From IMG/VR virus record IMGVR_UViG_3300031552_000003, positions 1-64,000 of that record: a stretch of DNA of 64,000 bases; one strand, given 5' to 3'. This document shows, in pieces, positions 1,060-59,276 of this stretch. This DNA comes from a virus. The notes beneath the pieces were generated by a model. The model made no database searches, was not told the DNA's origin, and was given only the letters and a program-made list of their open reading frames with translations. How positions within the stretch are numbered: the first letter of the stretch is position 1; each line of letters begins with the position of its first letter. Position numbers and translations under genes: made by a program.

Positions 1060-1755
1060 ATGATTTTGATTATGATGCGCAGGAAAAAACCAGTAAAATC
1101 AAAAATACCTAAAGAAAAAGATATTATCGATAGGTTTCCTTTGGTTAAAGGATCAGATGGAATTGATAATCCTGATTTTTTAGATAAATTGAAAAAGGGG
1201 GTTTTTGATAAAGAAGATTTACCATATCCTGAAAGAGGGGGGCCGCGGATAAAGTTTAAGAATGATTTTACACGGCAGGTTTATTATTTGGCCAGGATGG
1301 GGGCACGTATATGTGATATAGCTGAATTTTTTAACGTGTCCCATATTTGTGTTGATAAGTGGAAACAACAGAATGTTGATTTTCGGGAAGCTTATCTTGA
1401 GGGGCATTGGTTGTTCGGGATGAAAGTTGGGGAAACTTTGGGGCAAAGGGCACTTGGGTATAGTTACACGGAAATAGAAAAGTCACAACATGTGGATAGG
1501 CAAGGGGAAATCAGGGATTTGGTAAAAACTACAACTAAACACATGCCCCCTGACGTGACAGCGATTATCTTTTATTTGAAAAACAGGTTTAGGGATTCGT
1601 GGATGGATGTGCACCGGGCAGAAATTGATGCGCGGATAGATGTGGACATTTCCAAAAAATTGGATATGGAAGTGCTTACTGATGATGAGAAAGCCATGAT
1701 AAAAAGTATAGCAATTAAAAATATTAGTTCCGTGCATGGGGTATCCGATAATTAA
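1060..1755 (+). CDS. terS: Terminase small subunit
   Basis: HTH (IAEFFNVSHICVDKWK), 'PPDVTAIIFYLKNR..W.D' motif, overlaps terL start. Confidence 0.85.
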   Translation: MILIMMRRKKPVKSKIPKEKDIIDRFPLVKGSDGIDNPDFLDKLKKGVFDKEDLPYPERGGPRIKFKNDFTRQVYYLARMGARICDIAEFFNVSHICVDKWKQQNVDFREAYLEGHWLFGMKVGETLGQRALGYSYTEIEKSQHVDRQGEIRDLVKTTTKHMPPDVTAIIFYLKNRFRDSWMDVHRAEIDARIDVDISKKLDMEVLTDDEKAMIKSIAIKNISSVHGVSDN

Positions 1756-4700
1756 TCGAAAAGATAATACTGTATATACCAGGGATGAGATACTTAAGAC
1801 TGCCCTGGAAAACCCTTATGCGGCTATTGTTAGCTTGGGGGGGTTGACGTTGTTCGAGTTTGTGCAGTGTTTTTGGAATGAAGTCAGTGACGACGAATTG
1901 AAAATAAACTGGCATATTCCATATCTTTGTGGACAACTTGAAGAAATTGCTGAACGGGTAGGAAAAAAAGAAAAAAAGTTATATGATTTGATAACAAATA
2001 TTCCACCCGGGACTACAAAGACGATTATATGCAGTGTTATGTTCCCGGTTTGGTGTTGGACAAAATGGTATTGGATGAAATTTATTACCGGATCGTACAG
2101 TAGTGACCTTAGTTTGGAAAGTGCAGAAAAAAGCCGTGATATTATACGGTCTGATAAATTTAAATTGTTGTTCCCGGATATAATTATCAAAGAAGATAAA
2201 GATACTAAGTCTAATTACAGGATTGCTTTTAAAATACGTGATTATAAAGGGAAGGCCAGTAGGACAGTATTAGGTGGGGGAAGGTATTCTACTTCGGTAG
2301 GGGGCACGATAATGGGGTTTCACGGGCATATAAACATATGGGACGATCCGCTAAATCCAAAGCAAGCTGTTTCAGAAGCTTTATTGAAAATTGCAAACGA
2401 TTGGATTGACCAATCTGCCAGTACACGTAAAATAGATAAAGAAGTTTCTGTTACAATATTAGTGATGCAGCGCTTACATCAATGTTTGTTACCAGAAACA
2501 CGAATATATACACCAAATGGGTTTAAAGAAATTCAAAATTTTAAATTAGATGATGTTGTATATACAAGTTTTGGAAAACAAAATGTTCAAGGTGTTTTTA
2601 ATAGGGAGTATGATGGAAATATCATAAGTATATGCCCCAGTGGGCATCCTGAAAATATAAAAGTAACAGAAACACATCAAATATATACTCAAAGAGGTTG
2701 GGTAAAAGCAGGTGATTTGAATTTAAAAGATATACTATTATACCCTATTACAGAACATAAAGAATCCATTGTATTATCTGAATTATGGCCGGAAATGCCT
2801 ATAAAAGATAAATCTCCAAAAATATTCAGATCAAATTTTAATGGGGATACTAAACGTGTTCCTTATGAAGTATTAAAAAAATTAGTAGATGCAGGAAAGA
2901 GTAGTACAGAACTTGCAGAATATTTTGGGTTTAAAAACAGACAAATTATTGATTTGTATATTGCTAAATATAAAATAAAGAGAAAAGCAGCAGTAAGTAT
3001 ATCAAACGAAATTATAAATGATCTTAATTTTTGGAGAGTTGTTGGGTATTGGCTTGCAGAAGGGTGTTTAGTAAAAGGAAGAAGAGGGATATCACATGTA
3101 GTACGTTTTTCCTTTGGAAATAAGGATAAAGAAATGATAGCAGATACAGTAGCTATTTTAAAAAAATATAAAATTTCAGTTCATGTAAATGATACAAAAT
3201 ATAATAGTTTTTGTGTTAGGTTTTCTTCGTATCAATTTGCATTATTTTTAGAAAATAATTTTGGAGTAGGGGCAGGAAATAAACACCTTCCTGATTGGAT
3301 TTTTTCTTTACCTAAAGAATATTTTGCACAGCTATTAAAGGGGTATTGGTTAGGGGATGGGAGTATTATTCGTAATTCGATTAGGCTAACTTCTGTATCC
3401 TTGCAATTATTAACAGATATACAAAATACCTTACTATCTTTTAATGTAATTTCTTCTATATATGCTTCAAAACCTTCATATAAATGTAAAATACAGACAG
3501 GGCCAGGAAAAGGCCGTATAATAGAAGGGAAATTAATTCCGTATGAATTGCGAGCAACAATTTGTGATATTTCTTCTAACTTTTGGGGGATTTCTGAAAA
3601 TAACACAGTGAAATATAAAAAATTACCGATTAATAGAATTAATGGTAAATGGATGTGTGTTAAAATAAATCACTTAGAAGTTGAAAAATATAAAGGTTTG
3701 GTGTATGATATTACAACACCTTGTCATGATTTTTTATCAGGTTTAGTGATGTTACACAATAGTGACCCAACAGGGCATTTGCTGGAAAAAATTAAAGAAG
3801 GAAAACAAATAAAGCACATTTGTCTCCCGGGGGAAATTGTGAATTATCGTGATAAAGTTAGCCCACTTGAACTTATTGAAAATTATTCGGAAGAAGGGTT
3901 GTTAGATCCTGTACGTTTAAGTACAGCAGCATTGAAAGAACTTGAAGCAGACCTTGGGCAATATGGATATGCCGGGCAAATAGGACAAAGCCCAACACCT
4001 CCCGGGGGAGGGATGTTTAAAGTAGATAATTTCCAAATCATAGACCATTTGCCTAATTCTTCTCATCTTATGCAAATGATGCGTTATTGGGACAAAGCAG
4101 GGACAGAAGGGGGAGGAAAACGGACAGCAGGGGTTAAAATAGTGAAACTTACTAATGGCAAATACATAGTTGTTGATGTTCGAAAAGGACAATGGGAAGC
4201 AGAAAAAAGGGAACGGATAATTAAACAAACAGCACAAGCTGATGAAAGGGATTGTGAAATAGGAATTGAGCAGGAACCAGGGCCAATTTGGGAAGATGAA
4301 AAAGTTCAAATGGCAAATGGGATATTAAAAAAATTAAAAGATGTTAAAAAAGGGGATTTTGTAATTAATTGGAAAGGAAAATCTACAAAAGTATTAGAAA
4401 TATATCAACAAGGAACATTGCCTATATTAAAAATTACTACTGATTCAGGAAGAGAGATACACACAGCATATAATCATCCATTTTTAACGCCTAATGGATG
4501 GGTTAACGCAGATCATTTACAAATTGATGATAATTTAGCATTAAAAACTGATATTCAAATAAAAATAACATCATTTCCGTCTATTGAAGAGTGTAGATTA
4601 GCTGGATATTTTGTAGGTGATGGTTGTTGTACATGGACAAAAAATAAAGAAATAACATGTAATTCAAATATAGTTTGTTCAGATGTTCTTGAGGGCAAGG

Positions 4701-5581
4701 ATATAATTTATTGTGCTGAAAAATTAGGGTTTAAAGTACATGTTGGTGGAAGTAAAGGTTGGACATATTATATTTCAGGAGGTATTAAAGATTGGCTAAA
4801 AAATAGGGGTTTAGCAGGTAAAAACACATTTCAAAAAAGAATCCCTGAATGGGTTTTAAAAGCAGATAATGTTTGTGTAGCTAATTTTTTGGGGGCTTAT
4901 TTAGCGTGTGATGGTTCCGTGATGAACACAAAACACCATCCATGTGTAGAATATTATAGCACAAATTTGGATTTATTAAAAGATACCCAAAGCACATTAT
5001 TACGATTTGGAATTTATACAATGTTAAGAAAACGAAATTATAAAGATGAATTTCAAAAAACAAGACATTTTTGTTATAGGATTACAACCAGAAGAAGTGA
5101 TGGATCAATGGGAAGATTTGCAAAATATATTCCTGTTTACGGAATTAAAGGAGAAAAATTAAAAATATTTAATCATTTGAATTTTGACCAGCCATATATT
5201 TCAGATCCAATCGTGTCTATTGAAAAAATGGATAAAATGTTGTGTAGGTGTATTGCAGTGAAAGATGGGGAAAGTTTTTTAGTAAATGATGTAGTGGTAC
5301 ATAATTCAGGTGGAAAAGAATCAGCAGAAGCTACTATGAGAAATTTAGCAGGATTTGTAGTACATAAAGATTTGCCAAAAGGGGATAAAATATACAGGGC
5401 AGATCCATTTTCAGTACAGGTAAATGAAGGAAATGTGATGTTGTTGCGGGGAGATTGGAACCATGATTTTATAGAAGAGCTCAGATTTTTTCCATTTGGA
5501 AATTTTAAAGATCAGGTTGATGCTGCATCTGCTGCATTTAATTTATTAGCAACAAAAAAAATAGCAGGGAGGATAACTTAA
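1736..5581 (+). CDS. terL: Terminase large subunit containing two inteins (spliced product ~514 aa)
   Basis: NIPPGTTKT Walker A, IWDDP Walker B, MQRLH, YWDKA, EQEPG/SGGKE, DQVDA nuclease motifs. Confidence 0.95.
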   Translation: MGYPIINRKDNTVYTRDEILKTALENPYAAIVSLGGLTLFEFVQCFWNEVSDDELKINWHIPYLCGQLEEIAERVGKKEKKLYDLITNIPPGTTKTIICSVMFPVWCWTKWYWMKFITGSYSSDLSLESAEKSRDIIRSDKFKLLFPDIIIKEDKDTKSNYRIAFKIRDYKGKASRTVLGGGRYSTSVGGTIMGFHGHINIWDDPLNPKQAVSEALLKIANDWIDQSASTRKIDKEVSVTILVMQRLHQCLLPETRIYTPNGFKEIQNFKLDDVVYTSFGKQNVQGVFNREYDGNIISICPSGHPENIKVTETHQIYTQRGWVKAGDLNLKDILLYPITEHKESIVLSELWPEMPIKDKSPKIFRSNFNGDTKRVPYEVLKKLVDAGKSSTELAEYFGFKNRQIIDLYIAKYKIKRKAAVSISNEIINDLNFWRVVGYWLAEGCLVKGRRGISHVVRFSFGNKDKEMIADTVAILKKYKISVHVNDTKYNSFCVRFSSYQFALFLENNFGVGAGNKHLPDWIFSLPKEYFAQLLKGYWLGDGSIIRNSIRLTSVSLQLLTDIQNTLLSFNVISSIYASKPSYKCKIQTGPGKGRIIEGKLIPYELRATICDISSNFWGISENNTVKYKKLPINRINGKWMCVKINHLEVEKYKGLVYDITTPCHDFLSGLVMLHNSDPTGHLLEKIKEGKQIKHICLPGEIVNYRDKVSPLELIENYSEEGLLDPVRLSTAALKELEADLGQYGYAGQIGQSPTPPGGGMFKVDNFQIIDHLPNSSHLMQMMRYWDKAGTEGGGKRTAGVKIVKLTNGKYIVVDVRKGQWEAEKRERIIKQTAQADERDCEIGIEQEPGPIWEDEKVQMANGILKKLKDVKKGDFVINWKGKSTKVLEIYQQGTLPILKITTDSGREIHTAYNHPFLTPNGWVNADHLQIDDNLALKTDIQIKITSFPSIEECRLAGYFVGDGCCTWTKNKEITCNSNIVCSDVLEGKDIIYCAEKLGFKVHVGGSKGWTYYISGGIKDWLKNRGLAGKNTFQKRIPEWVLKADNVCVANFLGAYLACDGSVMNTKHHPCVEYYSTNLDLLKDTQSTLLRFGIYTMLRKRNYKDEFQKTRHFCYRITTRRSDGSMGRFAKYIPVYGIKGEKLKIFNHLNFDQPYISDPIVSIEKMDKMLCRCIAVKDGESFLVNDVVVHNSGGKESAEATMRNLAGFVVHKDLPKGDKIYRADPFSVQVNEGNVMLLRGDWNHDFIEELRFFPFGNFKDQVDAASAAFNLLATKKIAGRIT
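2483..3760 (+). mobile_element. Intein 1 in TerL (Cys1...His-Asn/Ser+1, 426 aa) with LAGLIDADG homing endonuclease
   Basis: MQRLHQ|CLLPET...TETHQI...GYWLAEG...GYWLGDG...VYDIT...MLHN|SDPTG. Confidence 0.93.
4283..5305 (+). mobile_element. Intein 2 in TerL (Pro1...His-Asn/Ser+1, 341 aa) with LAGLIDADG homing endonuclease
   Basis: EQEPG|PIWEDEKV...YNHPFL...GYFVGDG...AYLACDG...CRCIAV...VVHN|SGGKE; removal restores EQEPGSGGKE. Confidence 0.9.
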
Positions 5582-52163: not shown

Positions 52164-52553
52164 TTAAAATGGACATTTTTCTTCTCTCATTTTCCATTCA
52201 TCATCTATATCTAATAAAACACCTCTTGCTCTTTTTGAATTATCAGAAACAGTAATAGCTCGAATATTATCCTTATGATACCCTTGTGATGGGTCTATTC
52301 TATCTATAGATAGACAATTTGCTGTTCTACCTTTTAATTTATCATATCCAGTTTGATTACAAAATTCTTTAAAATCATTAAGAGTTATTGTGACTTCTTT
52401 ATTACGCCTACGTGCATTGTTTTTAAATTTATCATACCAATAAGCAAGAGGGTTCATTTCTTTTTTTCTTCTTGATTTACAAGTCCAACATAATTTTCTA
52501 CCTTTACTTGCTTTATTTTTACATCCTGGTGTAATGCATTTTTTTTGTTTCAT
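52164..52553 (-). CDS. HNH-like endonuclease with N-terminal Zn finger
   Basis: CITPGC...CWTC; SIDRID...GY..DNI. Confidence 0.7.
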   Translation of the reverse strand: MKQKKCITPGCKNKASKGRKLCWTCKSRRKKEMNPLAYWYDKFKNNARRRNKEVTITLNDFKEFCNQTGYDKLKGRTANCLSIDRIDPSQGYHKDNIRAITVSDNSKRARGVLLDIDDEWKMREEKCPF

Positions 52554-54013
52554 ACTAAATCATATTTACTTTTTTCATACCATGAACCATCAACAGGAGC
52601 TAAATCAGCATCAACTTCTAAAGGAATATCAATCCAATCCCAATGTTTAGGTAAATCAATAGTTGTAATTTTATGCACAGTTTTACTGATTAACTTTAAT
52701 TCTTTTGGATTTACATCAATAATAAGTGAATCATGTACCTGTCCAATAATTTTACTATCAAGATTATTATCAATAATAAATTTATCTAATTCAATTAATG
52801 AAAAAAGCAAACAATGGAAAGCAGAACCTTGAATCGGATAATTACTTACTTCTTTTTTGTTCATCACACCTGAACAACGAAACCCTGTATAAAAATCAAA
52901 ATAACCTTTCTTTTGATATTCTTCAAACCAATCTATTTTCCATTGTTTATACTGTTTATACCTAACATTCCAAAAATTTTCTTCTATTTCTTTTATGTGT
53001 TTCATAAACCCAGTAGCAACCCATCCTTTTTCAGTTTTTTTGACTGAACCAAATTCTTTTATTCCTTTTGATATTAAATGATCTGATAAATAATAAGGTT
53101 TAAATGGTTTTCCCATCTCATCAACAATAGGACCTTGTCCATATTTCCATTTTCCTGTTTTTGGAAGTTTTCCCCAGTTATTTGCAAGGTTTTCAGCAGT
53201 ATTTTTATAATAATCCCCATAAAATTCAGCAAATACAAAGCCATTTTTTGCAGCTTGACGAAGTAATTTGTGCCCGGGTTTATTTTTATCAAAATTATCA
53301 ATCATAAATATTTCTTTAGCCATATCAGTATGCATATCACCATGTAAAATATCATATCCTAATTTTTCATCTTTATTATAGCAATAGCTTATACGTACTT
53401 CGAGTTGGCCAAAATCAACTTCTAACAATTGATGCCCTTTACGTGGAAATAAAGCACTTCGACACAATTTTTGCATTTCAGCATCCCGTATGGGAATATT
53501 TTGGAAGTTTGGAGAATCTGCTGAACTACGAAAAGTTCTGACTAAGTGCAAGTTATAAAATGGATGTATAATTCCATCCACTTGTTCATTGTAAAACCCG
53601 GTTAAAACATCAATTGATTTTTTAATCTTTCCTTTTTCAAGCAATAAATCTAATTCTGGTATTTCTAATTGTTTTAATGCTTCTTCGTCAGTAGAGCCTT
53701 TCTTGCTTTCTCCTGTTTTACCCCCTTTAGTATATTTAACAGGAGTAATTCCCTTTACTGTATAAAGAAAATGCCCTAATTGAATTCCTGAATTGATATT
53801 TATTTTGCCTTTCGTGTGTTTTTGCCAATCTTGAAAAAATTCAGATTCTTTAAATTTATGTTCAAAGCGTTCTATTTTACGTTGCAGGAAATTAAGTTTT
53901 CTTTTTACATATTCCACATCTACTCGGAACCCTTGCATTTCTGCACGTGCCAAAGCAAAAATACCATTATGAAAAAGTTGATAAGCTTCGTTACTATTTG
54001 GATGTACTTTCAT
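52550..54013 (-). CDS. polA: Family A DNA polymerase, polymerase domain
   Basis: R.S...PNFQNIP, D..QLEVR (motif A), R..AK...F...YG (B), QVHDS (C). Confidence 0.93.
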   Translation of the reverse strand: MKVHPNSNEAYQLFHNGIFALARAEMQGFRVDVEYVKRKLNFLQRKIERFEHKFKESEFFQDWQKHTKGKININSGIQLGHFLYTVKGITPVKYTKGGKTGESKKGSTDEEALKQLEIPELDLLLEKGKIKKSIDVLTGFYNEQVDGIIHPFYNLHLVRTFRSSADSPNFQNIPIRDAEMQKLCRSALFPRKGHQLLEVDFGQLEVRISYCYNKDEKLGYDILHGDMHTDMAKEIFMIDNFDKNKPGHKLLRQAAKNGFVFAEFYGDYYKNTAENLANNWGKLPKTGKWKYGQGPIVDEMGKPFKPYYLSDHLISKGIKEFGSVKKTEKGWVATGFMKHIKEIEENFWNVRYKQYKQWKIDWFEEYQKKGYFDFYTGFRCSGVMNKKEVSNYPIQGSAFHCLLFSLIELDKFIIDNNLDSKIIGQVHDSLIIDVNPKELKLISKTVHKITTIDLPKHWDWIDIPLEVDADLAPVDGSWYEKSKYDLV

Positions 54014-54017
54014 AATT

Positions 54018-55250
54018 TTAAAAAGGTAAAGGTGAGATTAAGTTTATTTGTTTCATGAATAATCGAAACTCGTTAATCGAATCATATGCACAATATTTTA
54101 ACAACTTTTCTTTTCCTCCAGGCATTTTCAAAAGTTCTTCTATTTGATTAATATCATTAGCACTATTTGAAACTTTAGGACGTAGATACGGTGCTATTTC
54201 ACTATCATAATCAACAATTCCAAAATTCACATAGTTTTGAAATTTCAACCCGGTTATGCCAGTCCTGTTATCTAAAATATGTGCTGCTTGCATTGTATCA
54301 TGATACCACCCTTTCACTTCTGTTCGTAACTTTACTTGTGACCAAACATGCTCGTATTTACAATTTTGAGCTATTTTATTAATGTTTTCATTATTAAGAA
54401 AATTAAGAAATGGTTTTAATTCTCTTCGTGTTTCAGGCATCATAAAAACATATGCATGATTTTCTGAATCTGCAATAGAACAACAAATTATTTTATGTCC
54501 TTCTGCATGTGGTTTCAACCCGGTAGTTTCATAATCAAATGCAGCAAAATTAGGAGAAATATGCGTTTTAACGGAACCTATTTGAGTATATTCAATTTCT
54601 TTTAAATCAGTTATAACTTCAATCTCAGGTTCTTTCCATATTGGAAATGGTTTATCAAGATGTTCGATAGCTTGTCTCAAATCAAGCTTCCAAATAGTTT
54701 CAATTTCATCACGTTGTTCATTTAAAATAGTAGAAGGATTAAAAATAGGGCAAATCCATGTTTTAAAATCTTGGTCTGGAATTGCAAATCCTCTCCATTT
54801 ATCAATATTCCCTAAGTCTTTTTTCCAGCGATTTCCTATGATGCTATAAAGAGCAGAATTACCAAGCAAAATAATTACTTTTGGTTTATATTTTTCAATT
54901 GCTTTTAATACCATTATAGAGCGACAACAATCTATTTGATGATTTGTAGGTTTATCAGTAGTACAATTTACAGCATTTAAGTTTATACAATCTTCAAATA
55001 AATCAATACCTAATTTTTCATAAGCCCGTTGTAATTTTCTACCTTCTTTTCCTTGCCATTGTTGCCCACGTTCACTATCTAATTCAGATGGACATTCTCC
55101 TATGTTCATTATGCCTTTTTTGAAATTTCCATAAGGTTTCATTTTTGGATTTAATATCTTTTTGTATAATCCGCAAGATGAGCATGAGAATATTTTACCT
55201 GTTGGCCTGGTTTTAGATTCAGTTTGTTTTTGTGTGAAAAATCCTGCCAT
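54018..55250 (-). CDS. Family-4 UDG-like domain fused to a 3'-5' exonuclease (N-terminal part of split PolA)
   Basis: CSSCGL, IGECP, P.VI.LLG; FDYETTGL, QN.KYE, DTM..AH, Y...D. Confidence 0.87.
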   Translation of the reverse strand: MAGFFTQKQTESKTRPTGKIFSCSSCGLYKKILNPKMKPYGNFKKGIMNIGECPSELDSERGQQWQGKEGRKLQRAYEKLGIDLFEDCINLNAVNCTTDKPTNHQIDCCRSIMVLKAIEKYKPKVIILLGNSALYSIIGNRWKKDLGNIDKWRGFAIPDQDFKTWICPIFNPSTILNEQRDEIETIWKLDLRQAIEHLDKPFPIWKEPEIEVITDLKEIEYTQIGSVKTHISPNFAAFDYETTGLKPHAEGHKIICCSIADSENHAYVFMMPETRRELKPFLNFLNNENINKIAQNCKYEHVWSQVKLRTEVKGWYHDTMQAAHILDNRTGITGLKFQNYVNFGIVDYDSEIAPYLRPKVSNSANDINQIEELLKMPGGKEKLLKYCAYDSINEFRLFMKQINLISPLPF

Positions 55251-55265
55251 TTTTTAGTTATTATT

Positions 55266-55469
55266 TTATACATTAATTTGAATATCTATTTTACTAAGCA
55301 GCAATTCAAAATCTTTTTGACTGACATGTTTAGGTTTTGAAATATAAAGCATCGGAAAAGATGAATTACTTTTATTTGAATGGCCCCAAACAATGCCTGA
55401 TTTAATACCGAAAATTTTTCTTCTATTTTCGTCAAATTCAAATGATTTTATTGATTCTATAATATTCAT
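55266..55469 (-). CDS. Hypothetical protein (cassette array)
   Basis: ORF adjacent to repeat. Confidence 0.55.
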   Translation of the reverse strand: MNIIESIKSFEFDENRRKIFGIKSGIVWGHSNKSNSSFPMLYISKPKHVSQKDFELLLSKIDIQINV

Positions 55470-55526
55470 AATTAAAATTGTACGGTTTAATATTTTAAAC
55501 TGTTGTTATTTAGATGTTAGTGCCAA

Positions 55527-56093
55527 TTATAAAACCGCCCGCTTGATATCAAAGTCGCATTTACGAATTTTGCACATACGCCCATCGGTTTTGTGATGAA
55601 AAACAATTCCTTCAATATCTAATTCTGAGTTTGATAAGTAGTTTTTTAACCCATCAAAAGAAAAGTCAGTTACTGGCAATATTTCAATTCCATGTTTAAC
55701 TAAAATATGCCCAGTTAAATGTTCTGGGTTTCCTTGTAATTTTTCGCCACAAAGTTCGTAAGTTCCATTTTCTTTGTTTTTTAAGGCATCAAAGCCAACA
55801 AAATGCCATTTATCGGTTGGGTTATTTCGGTCGCATTTAATCCAATGTGGCCAGTGTCCTGTTATTTCATCAGGTTCTTGGCATGGTATCGCATTTGCTG
55901 GTACTTGTTTGCCTTTTTTTACATCATAGCGTTTATATAATTCGCCATTAATAATTGCGGTGGCAGTTCCATCAAACTTGCGTGTAGGAATACCTTCGCC
56001 ATCAATTACCCATTTGTTTTCGGGTGCAATTTCATTAATTACCCTGCTTAAATCATTCGGGTCTTTTTTGTAAAGTGTGCTAATTTTCTTCAT
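55527..56093 (-). CDS. ATP-dependent RNA-ligase-like nucleotidyltransferase (DUF5565-like)
   Basis: TRKFDGT (motif I), YELCG, EGIVF (IV), CKI (V). Confidence 0.75.
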   Translation of the reverse strand: MKKISTLYKKDPNDLSRVINEIAPENKWVIDGEGIPTRKFDGTATAIINGELYKRYDVKKGKQVPANAIPCQEPDEITGHWPHWIKCDRNNPTDKWHFVGFDALKNKENGTYELCGEKLQGNPEHLTGHILVKHGIEILPVTDFSFDGLKNYLSNSELDIEGIVFHHKTDGRMCKIRKCDFDIKRAVL

Positions 56094-56277
56094 TGTATTT
56101 TAATTTTTAAAAGTTGATAATCAAATAAATAACTGCCACTAACACCGCGTATAGGTAATGTGGGTTTTTCGTTTAATTCATTCATTTGTTTATATCTATT
56201 AAGTTTATACTAAATTGATAAGTTTAAAATTTTAAACCGTTGTTTTTGCTACGTTTCTGCTCATGAGTAATGTGACA

Positions 56278-56478
56278 TTAATCACTCTGCACATGCACAA
56301 TACCACTATCAAGTAGGCATATTTCAATCTGTTTCCCATCTTCAAGTAACAATTGTAATTCATCACCATCTTCATCCTTGTGTAAGTATATATCTACAAT
56401 CTTTTTACCAAGGATTTCTTTGGAGTCGAGCATCCCATATTCTATTGTTTTGCTTGCTTTATATTTTCGTTTTCCCAT
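56278..56478 (-). CDS. Hypothetical protein (cassette array)
   Basis: ORF between repeats. Confidence 0.6.
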   Translation of the reverse strand: MGKRKYKASKTIEYGMLDSKEILGKKIVDIYLHKDEDGDELQLLLEDGKQIEICLLDSGIVHVQSD

Positions 56479-56556
56479 AATATTTGTTTTTAAGTTTATA
56501 CTAAATTGATAAGTTTAATATTTTAAACTGTTGTTATTGATATGATAGCAAACATA

Positions 56557-56802
56557 TTAAGAATTCGCTTCGTCTAATAGTTCAGAAGCATTGCCTTTCA
56601 TATATTCACTAATTTTTTGATATGATTTTGAAACACTATCGTTGTCAAATCCACGAAATTTAACTCTGGCAGGATAAACAGATTTTACTACATCACCATC
56701 CATAACAAAAACTATTGCCCACCCAAACACATGTAATATTTGATTAATGAAAAGAAGCAAACCTGTACTTCTAAATTCTGACCATTCTTTTTTTGTTACC
56801 AT
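56557..56802 (-). CDS. Phage hypothetical protein (cassette array)
   Basis: W.EFR.TGLL..IN.ILH.FGWA; ORF between repeats. Confidence 0.65.
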   Translation of the reverse strand: MVTKKEWSEFRSTGLLLFINQILHVFGWAIVFVMDGDVVKSVYPARVKFRGFDNDSVSKSYQKISEYMKGNASELLDEANS

Positions 56803-56877
56803 TTTGTTTAAATATTTTATTTATGTATTTAATTAATAATCAGATAAAAAACAGCTGATAACACGTAATAAACAATG

Positions 56878-57093
56878 CTATAACTTCCCGCTTAATATAT
56901 CTAATCCGACTGAAGATACTGTGTTATCAAATACTCTTGGTTTTGATTTACTTGCTTTTGCAACAATGTAAGCATCACGTAGTTTTTGCATTGCATCAAT
57001 AAAGCTTTCATAATGTTTTTCATCTAAGTTGGTAATATCTACCAAATTACCTGTACTTGTTTCCTGTACTAAAATTTTGTTAAAGAATCCCAT
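56878..57093 (-). CDS. Hypothetical protein (cassette array)
   Basis: Start codon lies within the 40-bp repeat. Confidence 0.6.
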   Translation of the reverse strand: MGFFNKILVQETSTGNLVDITNLDEKHYESFIDAMQKLRDAYIVAKASKSKPRVFDNTVSSVGLDILSGKL

Positions 57094-57188
57094 AATATTT
57101 GTTTTTAAGTTTATACTAAATTGATAAATGTATTCATTCTATTAAGTTTGTGAGGGCTACACATCATATATTCAACATTATAAACAAA

Positions 57189-57407
57189 CTAATTTCCAAA
57201 GCCACTAATTAAGTATTTTAGTAATTGAATACATTTCAACGTGCTTGATTCGGCTTTTATTTTATCAACTATTTTTTCAAGTTCTAATTCATAATCAGAT
57301 AATCCAGATAATTGAGCAGTTTCTTGCATCCATTCTACTGTCGATTTTCCACTACCGACACTAAATGAAGGACGTAATTCATCGTTAAATCTATTTTCTT
57401 TATTCAT
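57189..57407 (-). CDS. Hypothetical protein (cassette array)
   Basis: ORF between repeats. Confidence 0.55.
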   Translation of the reverse strand: MNKENRFNDELRPSFSVGSGKSTVEWMQETAQLSGLSDYELELEKIVDKIKAESSTLKCIQLLKYLISGFGN

Positions 57408-57431
57408 TATTTGTCTGTTTTTGTAGTGACA

Positions 57432-57635
57432 TTAAAGCGTAATTTCAAATATACCTTCTATTTCTGCTTTAGTGCCATAATCAACTTTTCCAATATTAAG
57501 TTCATAAGCATCTTCATACACAACTATATATCTATCTTTAAACCCAGTTTTAATTACGTGTATTAATTCTGGTTCATTTTGTAATCTAAATGTTTTAGTT
57601 ACATTACCGCTTTCAATCCATTTTAAGTTTTCCAT
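57432..57635 (-). CDS. Hypothetical protein (cassette array)
   Basis: ORF between repeats. Confidence 0.55.
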   Translation of the reverse strand: MENLKWIESGNVTKTFRLQNEPELIHVIKTGFKDRYIVVYEDAYELNIGKVDYGTKAEIEGIFEITL

Positions 57636-57742
57636 AATAATAACGCCACATAATAATGCATTGTCTTTATGGTCTTTTTTAAGTTTATACTAAATTGATA
57701 AGTTTAAAATTTTAAACTATTGTTATCGATATTAGATACAAT

Positions 57743-57964
57743 TTAATGTCCACAATATTGCGAAATGAGTTTGATAATTTCATCTTTAAGTACATCTGGC
57801 ATATTGGAAGTTATTAACGTTATCGGTTCATCAATGGGATATTTTTCCAAAATTATTGGTATTTCATCATTTGGTTTGCTTCCAATCATCCTAAACTGGT
57901 TGTATGTTAAATTATCAAACTCAAACTTAATTTCTTTTTCTGGTATTTCTAAAATTGCTTTCAT
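57743..57964 (-). CDS. Hypothetical protein (cassette array)
   Basis: ORF between repeats. Confidence 0.55.
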   Translation of the reverse strand: MKAILEIPEKEIKFEFDNLTYNQFRMIGSKPNDEIPIILEKYPIDEPITLITSNMPDVLKDEIIKLISQYCGH

Positions 57965-58000
57965 AATTAGTATTATAAATTGTGACTAAAAGCTAACTTT

Positions 58001-58255
58001 TCATATTATTATCGCACGCATTGTATCTATTATTTCTTCGGTTGTAAATCCAATCTTACTTATCATTCCACCAACTTTCACCATCGCTTCTTTTATTTCT
58101 TCATCTGCCATATTAGAAGTATCATGTCCGAAAAAAGCAAGTTCGGATCTAAATTTAGCAATTACTATTCGCTCTTGTTTTTCCACGCTTAAAAAGCGCA
58201 TAACAATGCGTAAAATCCATTGCTTACGTAGTAGGTAATTTGCAAATGTTTTCAT
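58001..58255 (-). CDS. Hypothetical protein whose N-terminus reads through an attC-like arm
   Basis: GCATAAC at 58198-58204 is antisense to the IVMR codons. Confidence 0.55.
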   Translation of the reverse strand: MKTFANYLLRKQWILRIVMRFLSVEKQERIVIAKFRSELAFFGHDTSNMADEEIKEAMVKVGGMISKIGFTTEEIIDTMRAIII

Positions 58256-58265
58256 ATAATTAACA

Positions 58266-59276
58266 TTATTTACTTTTAATCACAGTTACATATGTCCAAT
58301 TATCACCAGAAAACTTTATCCTGTTTTTTGCTATAATACAATTAAGTGTTTCAGAAAGTATATCTTTCAAAAAATATGGGGATATTGAAAAAGATACAGG
58401 CTCCTCATTGTATTTTATTTTTACTACTTCTTCAAACCACCCACTATCTGATTTACTTGATATTTTAAATTTGTTATTTTCTAAAATTATATCTACAGGC
58501 ATTTCAAAACCATTATGTTTACAAAACACCATAGCTTTGTCTAAAATTTCCTTAGTAGTTTCTGGTAATTTTACTTGTGTCCCTTCTATTTTAAAAAAAG
58601 AAGCTGTATCAGGAAAATTATCATCTGCAAATATTCTACATGATATTATAACACCCTCATTAGTTTTAAAATGAACCCATCCTTTCCCTTCTGCTATTTT
58701 AATAGGGTTCATTTTAGCTACTTTTACAACTGATATTGCCGGGATAAGAAAAGTTTCAACAGGAAGCTTATCTTCTAACATTATCTTTGAAATTCGGAAT
58801 GAATCAGAAGCTTCTACAAACCCTTCCTTGTTTACATGTACACATGTTAAAATTGGTTTTGTTGAATCTTGTGAAGCTGTTTTACCTGCAAAAAATATTG
58901 CTTTTAATAAATCATCAGGTATATTTTTCCACATGCCTTTTTCACCAATACTATCTATTGGTAATTTAATTTCTGATTGTAATGTTAAACCAGCTTTTGA
59001 CCTGCCACATTTAATCCTAAGTTCTGTTTCTTCTACAGTTAATTCAATTTCATCTTTTTTTAATTTACTTAGTAGGTTATATAATTCAGTAGCATTTACC
59101 GCACCTGTTATATCTAAACCTTCAACGTGATAAGAAATACTAATTTCATCGTTGTACGTAACAATTTTATCCCCTATAAAAGCAAATGATGTCGATTGTT
59201 CTATTAATTCTCTGTTTGCAAGCCCTGGACGGACTGTTTCAAGTGCTTTTAACAATTCTGTTTTATTTATAATCAT
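58266..59276 (-). CDS. dnaN: DNA polymerase sliding clamp (beta subunit-like)
   Basis: 336 aa three-domain pattern, P.LT.V......ASD.FR, FPD; clamp loader in same arm. Confidence 0.8.
   Translation of the reverse strand: MIINKTELLKALETVRPGLANRELIEQSTSFAFIGDKIVTYNDEISISYHVEGLDITGAVNATELYNLLSKLKKDEIELTVEETELRIKCGRSKAGLTLQSEIKLPIDSIGEKGMWKNIPDDLLKAIFFAGKTASQDSTKPILTCVHVNKEGFVEASDSFRISKIMLEDKLPVETFLIPAISVVKVAKMNPIKIAEGKGWVHFKTNEGVIISCRIFADDNFPDTASFFKIEGTQVKLPETTKEILDKAMVFCKHNGFEMPVDIILENNKFKISSKSDSGWFEEVVKIKYNEEPVSFSISPYFLKDILSETLNCIIAKNRIKFSGDNWTYVTVIKSK

Follow-up and report, generated by a model that had tools for sequence, protein, structure and literature searches.

The window examined here comprises the first 64 kb (64,000 nt) of IMG/VR virus record IMGVR_UViG_3300031552_000003, a genome of 75,421 bp (CheckV 100% complete), and our subject is an accessory-gene island within it (55266–58255, minus strand), in which a family of short intergenic repeats precedes several small genes. 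The island consists of ten small open reading frames (ORFs) between a sliding-clamp gene and a polymerase gene, recognized from the ORF list and from their coding-like composition (GC1 > GC2 > GC3 by codon position). All ten lie on the minus strand and are mutually unrelated; nine, the number given in an earlier reading of the sequence alone (hereafter the original prediction), encode 66–188 amino acids (aa), and the tenth is a 31-aa frame. The original prediction took the island for a partly decayed, integron-like gene-capture array, and this interpretation is partly supported: the unit carrying an RNA-ligase-like gene is a discrete mobile cassette, whereas the repeat family, on which the claim centred, is not attC-like.

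Two modules make up the repeat family. The 22-nt core, which had already been recognized as a fourfold repeat extendable to about 45 bp, occurs at 56201, 56492, 57107 (one mismatch) and 57681, where shuffled sequences would yield none, and a second 22-nt module occurs at 55486, 56223, 56514 and 57703. Together the two modules extend to 45–78 nt, and the two-module unit stands at five gene junctions. Read on the coding strand, the unit consists of (A)TAAC-AAYAG, a 16-bp palindrome (GTTTAAAATWTTAAAC), a box (TTATCAATTTAGTATAAACTT), an A-rich leader of 13–15 nt (45 nt in one copy) and the ATG. All copies are intergenic, co-oriented with the genes, 96–100% identical in sequence and in fixed register to the start codons that they precede (i.e. 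55469, 56185, 56478, 57093 and 57635). The palindrome is present in four of the five copies, perfect in two and with one mismatch in the other two, and is thermodynamically weak.

The individual copies differ in their completeness. Module A (55470–55515, minus strand) is palindrome-only (palindrome at 55485–55500), lies 15 nt ahead of the ATG of ORF 55266–55469 and adjoins the 3' end of the ligase unit directly (CTAAC, then the palindrome-only module). In copy B, the box (56201–56222, minus strand; CTTATCAATTTAGTATAAACTT on the coding strand) lies 15 nt ahead of the ATG at 56185 and is joined to a perfect 16-bp palindrome (56222–56237; GTTTAAAATTTTAAAC). In copy C, the box (56492–56513, minus strand) lies 13 nt ahead of the ATG of ORF 56278–56478 and the palindrome (56513–56528) has one mismatch. 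Copy D has a box (57107–57128, minus strand), 13 nt ahead of the ATG of ORF 56878–57093, and no palindrome; it is 96% identical to copy C across 45 nt, ATGGGA included. Copy E combines a box (57681–57702, minus strand), 45 nt ahead of the ATG of ORF 57432–57635, with a second perfect 16-bp palindrome (57702–57717). Outside the window, the first 29 nt of module A, from the ligase-end junction, recur at 71.7 kb, where a sixth, partial module (CTAAC-ATCTAAATAATAACAGTTTAAAAT, 71693–71730 of the complete record, G000) follows a YopX-like ORF (71737–72102). Exact-pattern scans of viral contigs for the second module and for the CTAAC-ATCTAAATAA junction gave no matches.

Sites of the attC type share structure rather than sequence. 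When the intergenic stretches of the island were folded as single-stranded DNA (ssDNA), a check proposed with the original prediction, no attC-like fold appeared: none of them folded better than shuffled sequences (z from +0.3 to −1.3), and only the 6–7-bp AT palindrome formed. A strict scan for elements of the form TAAC-bulge-stem...stem-GTTA found two genome-wide (3.1 expected) and none in the island; the same scan found 10 (1.2 expected) and 5 (1.3 expected) in the two phages whose arrays are described below. With a permissive E-value, Rfam returned nothing relevant for the island or for two related loci. The 20-nt box was found in no bacterial cassette array. A search of 185,579 bacterial and archaeal species genomes gave one match, located inside a coding region of an Algibacter genome and judged to be due to chance. 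The integron-integrase model TIGR02249 matched none of 301 Flavobacteriaceae genomes, a result that is uninformative because control genomes were likewise unmatched. A CALIN (cluster of attC sites lacking integron-integrases) is defined by at least two clustered attC sites; the window holds no intact hairpin and its repeats are conserved by sequence, which places it outside that definition. The original prediction had named three findings that would count against it: the lack of an attC-like fold and the lack of a match to bacterial arrays were both observed, whereas an invariant gene order in relatives was not (see below).

The whole island might nevertheless be a partly decayed integron-type array of the CALIN kind, with the repeats as degenerate attC-like sites and the recombinase supplied by the host or by a co-infecting element. 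In favour of this view, the ligase unit, with half a hairpin beside it, is a true cassette of that kind; the second module, which starts with (A)TAAC followed by a 4–5-nt spacer and a 7-bp stem, mimics the TAAC-bulge-stem layout of the related hairpins; the island sits at a variable hotspot; and CALINs that recombine with IntI1 have been published for virulent phages, one of them a Polaribacter phage (Qi et al. 2023, PMC9892861). Against this stand the absence of a significant fold, and repeats that are identical in sequence and keep a fixed register to start codons. Nor does any of the other nine island ORFs show complementarity between its own two ends, and GTTA-N6/N6-TAAC pairs are no commoner genome-wide than in shuffles (74 versus 124). 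The degenerate cassette ends that had been suggested at 56544/56856, 57991 and 58198 likewise lack such own-end complementarity, and the 56544/56856 pair, which flanks the 81-aa ORF, is explained by conservation among homologues, 61 related loci being mostly without such sites. The absence of an integrase from the window, noted earlier, extends to the whole 75,421-bp record: the tyrosine recombinase family PF00589 is absent, so there is no intI beside the array, and the complete genome also lacks the Y1/HUH transposase (PF01797) and serine recombinase (PF00239) families. Complete integrons are, moreover, rare in Bacteroidetes (PMC9024848). On balance we regard a decayed array of this type as unlikely. 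A composite bracket around seven ORFs, GTTATTATTATG (57644) ... TAAAATAATAAC (55257), was also considered and rejected as low-complexity chance.

The box was also examined as a possible signal. The exact 13-mer TTAGTATAAACTT, which extends to the 20-mer in three cases, is present as well in two further phage contigs, hereafter G1 and G2, and in all three phages it is intergenic, co-oriented with the genes and 1–60 nt ahead of an ATG. The phage studied here has just two genes in common with G1 and no gene in common with G2. The box is kept at 20 of 20 positions across these unrelated phages, while the leaders that follow it differ and adjacent coding DNA is about 75% identical, which marks the box as a signal under selection. 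A scan for sigma-70 promoters and terminators gave 18 matches versus 20.3 expected, none at the repeats. A scan for the Bacteroidota TTTG/TAnnTTTG promoter found none in the repeats, canonical sites being confined to 75160, 61567 and a few other places. If the box is a promoter, it would belong to a phage-specific class with a TATAAA-like core, and the palindrome would probably be the operator of a dimeric regulator.

The island occupies a position that varies widely among related phages. The upstream border is a gene for a sliding clamp of the DNA polymerase III beta type (58266–59276, minus strand; phrog_947, 1.8e-34, with weak Pfam DNA_pol3_beta matches), and the downstream border is the middle fragment of a split DnaE-type polymerase (54018–55250, minus strand; phrog_17 positions 463–828). 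About 22 relatives were found through the clamp protein (27–62% aa identity, none close); the same polymerase fragment follows the clamp gene beyond the gap in these relatives, and the gap measures from 5 to at least 1346 bp compared to 3015 bp here. Their cargo is unrelated and tightly coupled, and includes apparent cytosine methyltransferases (read from sequence), a helicase-like ORF and others; none of the genes of the present island recurs in these gaps. Gene content at the clamp–polymerase spot is thus not invariant, and the comparison indicates that this junction is an insertion hotspot across the phage group and that its gap is hyperplastic here. In six of these relatives (loci L006, L017, L018, L025, L033 and L034), the gap ORFs resemble cytosine methyltransferases, an SLOG/DUF2493-like protein and an SNF2-type helicase (read from sequence), and show ATGA-overlap translational coupling and no repeats.

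Population variants point to the same modules. Two salt-marsh metagenomes contain short contigs that are 95–100% identical to parts of the island and then run into sequence foreign to the genome at 55463, 55476, 55520, 56484, 56514, 56800 and 57653–57656, all of which are module or gene borders; in one contig, the 58-nt stretch 55463–55520 carries foreign flanks. These breakpoints fit shuffling at the modules but are a hint rather than proof, because depth is 2–5x and assemblers break at repeats. The two DNA runs yielded only short pieces, for which no joints were reported, and the public sequencing runs listed for the sequence included no RNA run.

Taken together, these observations lead us to favour, with moderate confidence, the reading that the repeats form a regulatory (promoter/operator-leader) cassette that also serves as a recombination substrate in a hyperplastic island. 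On the coding strand, such a cassette would run from (A)TAAC-AAYAG through the 16-bp AT palindrome and the 20-nt box (TATCAATTTAGTATAAACTT) to the 13–15-nt A-rich leader, which has no Shine–Dalgarno sequence, and the ATG. Each copy would give its small gene a separate expression start, and since the copies are near-identical direct repeats of 45–78 nt they are expected to act as substrates for homologous recombination, which would shuffle, delete and swap the genes between them. This is how the promoter-early stem-loop (PeSL) elements, the mobile regulatory cassettes of T4-type phages, work (Arbiol et al. 2010, PMC2839356; Comeau et al. 2014, PMC4122927); PeSLs are composite promoter and stem-loop repeats that mediate modular shuffling and mini-circles.

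The likeness to PeSLs is threefold: (i) both are short composite repeats that span a stop codon, an AT-rich stretch, a promoter (here a candidate), a small stem-loop (here a weak palindrome), a leader and a start codon; (ii) both lie upstream of ORFans in hyperplastic regions, often beside a plastic or split DNA-polymerase locus; and (iii) PeSLs serve, and the island repeats probably serve, as exchange points between otherwise unrelated genes. As in the T4-type case, a repeated composite intergenic motif lies directly upstream of ORFans in a hyperplastic region and ends at the start codon. By contrast, the host early-promoter consensus of PeSLs is absent here (no sigma-70 match above shuffles and no TTTG/TAnnTTTG pair), an AT-only palindrome that precedes the box takes the place of the stem, and there are only five copies in a single island of a Bacteroidota-type siphovirus rather than of a T4-like myovirus.

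Several points weigh against a regulatory cassette that doubles as a recombination substrate. The repeats number only four or five, and the rest of the leftward arm has nothing but the partial copy at 71.7 kb; our analysis identified no cognate regulator for the palindrome, which consists of A and T alone; and the case for promoter activity is built from position and cross-phage conservation, because the repeats match neither a sigma-70 nor a Bacteroidota consensus. Assembly breaks at repeats may also mimic the salt-marsh breakpoints, the contigs being short. Finally, the module starts with (A)TAAC, a 4–5-nt spacer and a short stem, faintly mimicking the hairpin elements of related phages, and the repeats may thus derive from a degenerate recombination site.

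A simpler view keeps the regulation and drops the recombination: the repeats would be only operator sites or duplicated 5' leaders, with a regulator timing a read-through operon and the box as a leader or translation-initiation element. The near-perfect palindromes, the lack of consensus promoter hexamers and the co-orientation of the genes in one long leftward arm with few canonical promoters all suit it. It accommodates less well the separability of the modules (one box copy without palindrome and one palindrome copy without box), the conservation of the box in unrelated phages whose following leaders differ, and the clustering of population-variant breakpoints at modules, and we consider it improbable. 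The palindromes might otherwise act on RNA, as processing or termination hairpins that cut a polycistronic transcript into single-gene mRNAs. The elements are intergenic, and PeSL stem-loops act as terminators (PMC2839356), but the stems have 6–7 AT pairs and about −3 kcal/mol, are no better than shuffles and are followed by no T-tract, which makes this a very remote prospect.

Among the repeats lies a unit of a different origin. The RNA-ligase-like unit (55516–56143, minus strand) consists of a 12-nt end, a 43-nt leader, a 188-aa ORF (55527–56093) and a second 12-nt end. The protein matches phrog_14301 'RNA ligase' at 2.4e-70, with motif I KFDG at residues 39–42 (read from sequence). The 5' end (R'-like; 56132–56143, minus strand, GTTAGTGGCAGT on the coding strand) fits GTTA-N6-GT, the 3' end (R''-like; 55516–55527, minus strand, ATTGGCACTAAC on the coding strand) overlaps the ligase stop codon, and the two are complementary at 11 of 12 positions. 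They contain the GTTAGTG (55516–55522) and CACTAAC (56137–56143) heptamers that the original prediction had located exactly and read as the hallmark of an integron cassette. CACTAAC has the AAC/GTT core but departs from RYYYAAC at its first two positions, and a perfect inverted repeat of at least 7 nt brackets 31 of the 109 ORFs in this genome of 30% GC. The bracket alone is therefore not beyond chance and gains meaning only through homology. The earlier claim that the ORFs are inverted relative to attC polarity also falls, because a perfect inverted repeat reads alike on both strands and the 7-mers cannot show an inversion; the coding-strand order is GTTAG-leader-ORF-CTAAC.

Homology supplies the missing support. 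An unrelated phage contig (G003/L048, 74 kb of sequence) shares exactly window positions 55516–56145 at 91–92% nucleotide identity; its similarity begins and ends at the two cassette ends, collapses directly beyond GTGTTAGTG and CACTAAC, and is random outside the shared span. One metagenome contig also diverges at 55520, within the ligase 3' end. In about ten further phage loci, GTTAG/GTTAT lies about 50 nt ahead of the ligase ATG and CTAAC/ATAAC lies 6–9 nt past the stop, with unrelated DNA beyond, and the ends are complementary over 10–15 nt and covary between loci. We are fairly confident in assigning the ligase gene, as a mobile cassette, to an integron/CALIN-like family in phages. The gene also circulates outside such a context: locus L049 (G004, 1498–2100) has a 90% aa-identical ligase without cassette ends, with an AGGAG-type ribosome-binding site before it and a GC-containing terminator after it. 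In Cellulophaga phage phi10:1, the ligase gene is tightly packed and likewise without cassette ends.

In related phages, the ligase unit stands within arrays of 60–130-nt hairpins (ssDNA z from −3.1 to −4.8), each built of TAAC, a 4-nt one-sided bulge, a stem of about 20 bp, a loop and GTTA. G1 (IMGVR_UViG_3300020047_005201; L009 1–2520) has at least 10 such bulged hairpins between small ORFs, at 9.9–13.6 kb and 42.5–43.7 kb, and G2 (L014 600–2050) has five. These arrays lie in complete or partial phage genomes without any recombinase gene, and their cargo includes RNA ligase and DNA methyltransferase; many array ORFs start inside a hairpin loop and read through its 3' arm. G1 is a complete bona fide phage with terminase, tape measure and primase-helicase; recombinases of the tyrosine, serine and HUH types are all absent from it, and the DNA methyltransferase is the product of one of its cassettes. 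In the arrays, the extra bases of the bulge belong to the arm after the stop codon. This is the canonical attC side (R''-L'').

To characterize the ends, we compared the 8 nt after GTTA with the 8 nt before the next TAAC in 21 cassettes from eight arrays. Pairing with the cassette's own far end averages 5.76 of 8, versus 2.26 for the partner in the same hairpin and 2.34 for random pairs (permutation p<1e-4), and the consensus over the 21 cassettes, which derives from a fixed G.T at position 11, is GTTA-N6-GT ... AT-N6-TAAC. Own-end covariation is the classic signature of cassettes that circularize and re-insert at a core site. Because homology between loci breaks at both boxes, hairpins and ORFs both appear to be exchangeable.

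We tentatively propose that phages of the Flavobacteriia type could have a gene-cassette system of their own, so far undescribed and with no recombinase in cis, whose footprint would be the ligase unit and the half hairpin beside it. In such a system (i) cassettes with 12-nt covarying ends may be separated by the 60–130-nt hairpins with their one-sided 4-nt bulge; (ii) the hairpin loops may supply the following gene with its promoter-like box and leader and, in many cases, its start codon; (iii) the RNA ligase may have moved between unrelated phages, with DNA methyltransferase as further cargo; and (iv) the copy in the window may be in the course of being overwritten by homologous recombination at the loop-borne box. 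Because no recombinase is found in cis and integrons are rare in the host phylum, the system may use a non-IntI recombinase or another mechanism. A hairpin-guided mechanism of the HUH/IS200-like type was rejected, there being no Y1 transposase gene in five phage records.

The half hairpin itself (56144–56200, minus strand) has a loop with an ATG and a 3' arm but no complementary 5' arm. It aligns with the G2 element: from the box at 56222 down to GTTAGTGGCAGT at 56132, the window matches the G2 hairpin across its loop, start codon, 3' arm and R' box, and both segments begin with ATGAATGA and end with GGTGTTA. The complement of the remaining arm is found nowhere in the genome, the relic folds no better than shuffles (z −0.22), and the palindrome module stands in place of the missing 5' arm. 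The long arm from 56137 had been likened to Bacteroidota cassette repeats; its homology toward 56222 is to this phage hairpin, and its 20-nt box was found in no bacterial array. The 31-aa frame (56090–56185) begins 15 nt after a box copy, and its first codons (ATGAATGA) are also those of ORFs in G1 and G2 that start within a hairpin loop. Its stop codon and the ligase start share bases (ATGA), and the frame may be a coupling upstream ORF.

A plausible order of events starts with the entry of a hairpin-flanked ligase cassette into the hotspot. Homologous recombination at the loop-borne box and at the palindrome module would then have spread the module and destroyed the hairpins: the upstream one appears to have lost its 5' arm by recombination at the loop-borne 20-nt box, the downstream one is gone, and the 31-aa frame would be an orphaned loop-initiated leader.

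How phages acquire and shuffle small accessory genes, often with anti-defence roles, is poorly understood outside T4-like phages. The window appears to show two routes side by side, namely recombination at repeated regulatory modules and a site-bounded cassette with relatives in integron-like arrays of phages that have no integrase, and may be read as a PeSL-type repeat family beside the relic of a CALIN-type cassette. Of greater novelty, as a lead, are the arrays of related phages. The transfer of exactly 630 bp between phages that are otherwise unrelated, together with the covarying ends, offers a testable handle on a possible phage-specific cassette exchange, and the box is a candidate for a new promoter class of marine Flavobacteriia phages.

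We also compared these elements with other known systems. Like integron or CALIN cassettes, the ligase unit has complementary GTT.../...AAC ends and moves as a unit between genomes; the related arrays are co-oriented, with imperfect hairpins as separators, and the first bases of each cassette match its own 3' box; there is no integrase in cis, and the G1 cargo includes a DNA methyltransferase. The differences are that the window has no intact hairpin and a repeat family that is not attC-like, that the boxes are GTTA-N6-GT/AT-N6-TAAC rather than GTTRRRY/RYYYAAC, that the hairpins carry their 4-nt one-sided bulge next to TAAC and seem exchangeable, together with ORFs, at both boxes, and that the presumed host phylum has very few integrons. 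The start-associated sequences (SAS) and extended SAS (ESAS) of cluster K mycobacteriophages are short conserved motifs at a fixed distance before many start codons, sometimes with inverted repeats. They differ from the island repeats in sequence and host and in being genome-wide rather than confined to one island. Halovirus HF2 also has an intergenic repeat family within one virus genome (29–58 bp), cloned copies of which were reporter-tested as candidate promoters (PMC8707807); HF2, however, is a virus of archaea, its promoters are of another type, and its repeats have no cassette-like gene unit attached to them.

The virus itself is a siphovirus-like phage of roughly 75 kb and of marine Bacteroidota type. 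Its rightward arm is structural, with a portal, a tape measure and a large terminase with an intein-like insert, and its leftward arm (from about 75 to 40 kb) encodes a DnaB-like helicase, the clamp, an SbcC-like nuclease and, in two separate ORFs, the DnaE-type polymerase. A bacterium of the Bacteroidota (Flavobacteriia) is the likely host, because the gene leaders are A-rich and without Shine–Dalgarno sequences and because Cellulophaga phage phi10:1 is the sole named relative for any island gene.

Some further features complete the picture. The 81-aa ORF (56557–56802, minus strand) encodes a widespread phage protein without assigned function (phrog_16397, 9e-35). Two ORFans of 73 and 84 aa (57743–58255, minus strand; ORF list and profile searches) have no upstream repeat and are packed tightly behind the clamp gene, and the 73-aa ORF has no relatives in viral contigs. 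The large terminase ORF (1736–5581) encodes 1281 aa, and its terminase matches are interrupted by a central endonuclease- or intein-associated region, which fits an intein insertion. The DnaE-type polymerase (52550–55250) is divided into at least two ORFs, the next one after the middle fragment being 52550–54013 (minus strand; phrog_17 positions 833–1237), and the N-terminal third of the profile is not adjacent. In one relative (L007, 8847–14444), the homologous polymerase genes are interrupted further, at two places, by insertions of about 1.1 kb, possibly inteins or homing elements. Beyond the window, at 73075–73231 of the complete record, a perfect inverted pair of 12 nt (GTTATGTGCTAT...ATAGCACATAAC) finishes just past the stop codon of ORF 73087–73455, and TAAATAACAATAG comes next; the pair may mark another cassette relic. 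Finally, a second leader family, TAAAACTTTTTAAYC-ATG, precedes at least four small early ORFs at 67.8–74.4 kb of that record, where GC-rich terminator-like hairpins often stand ahead of these leaders.

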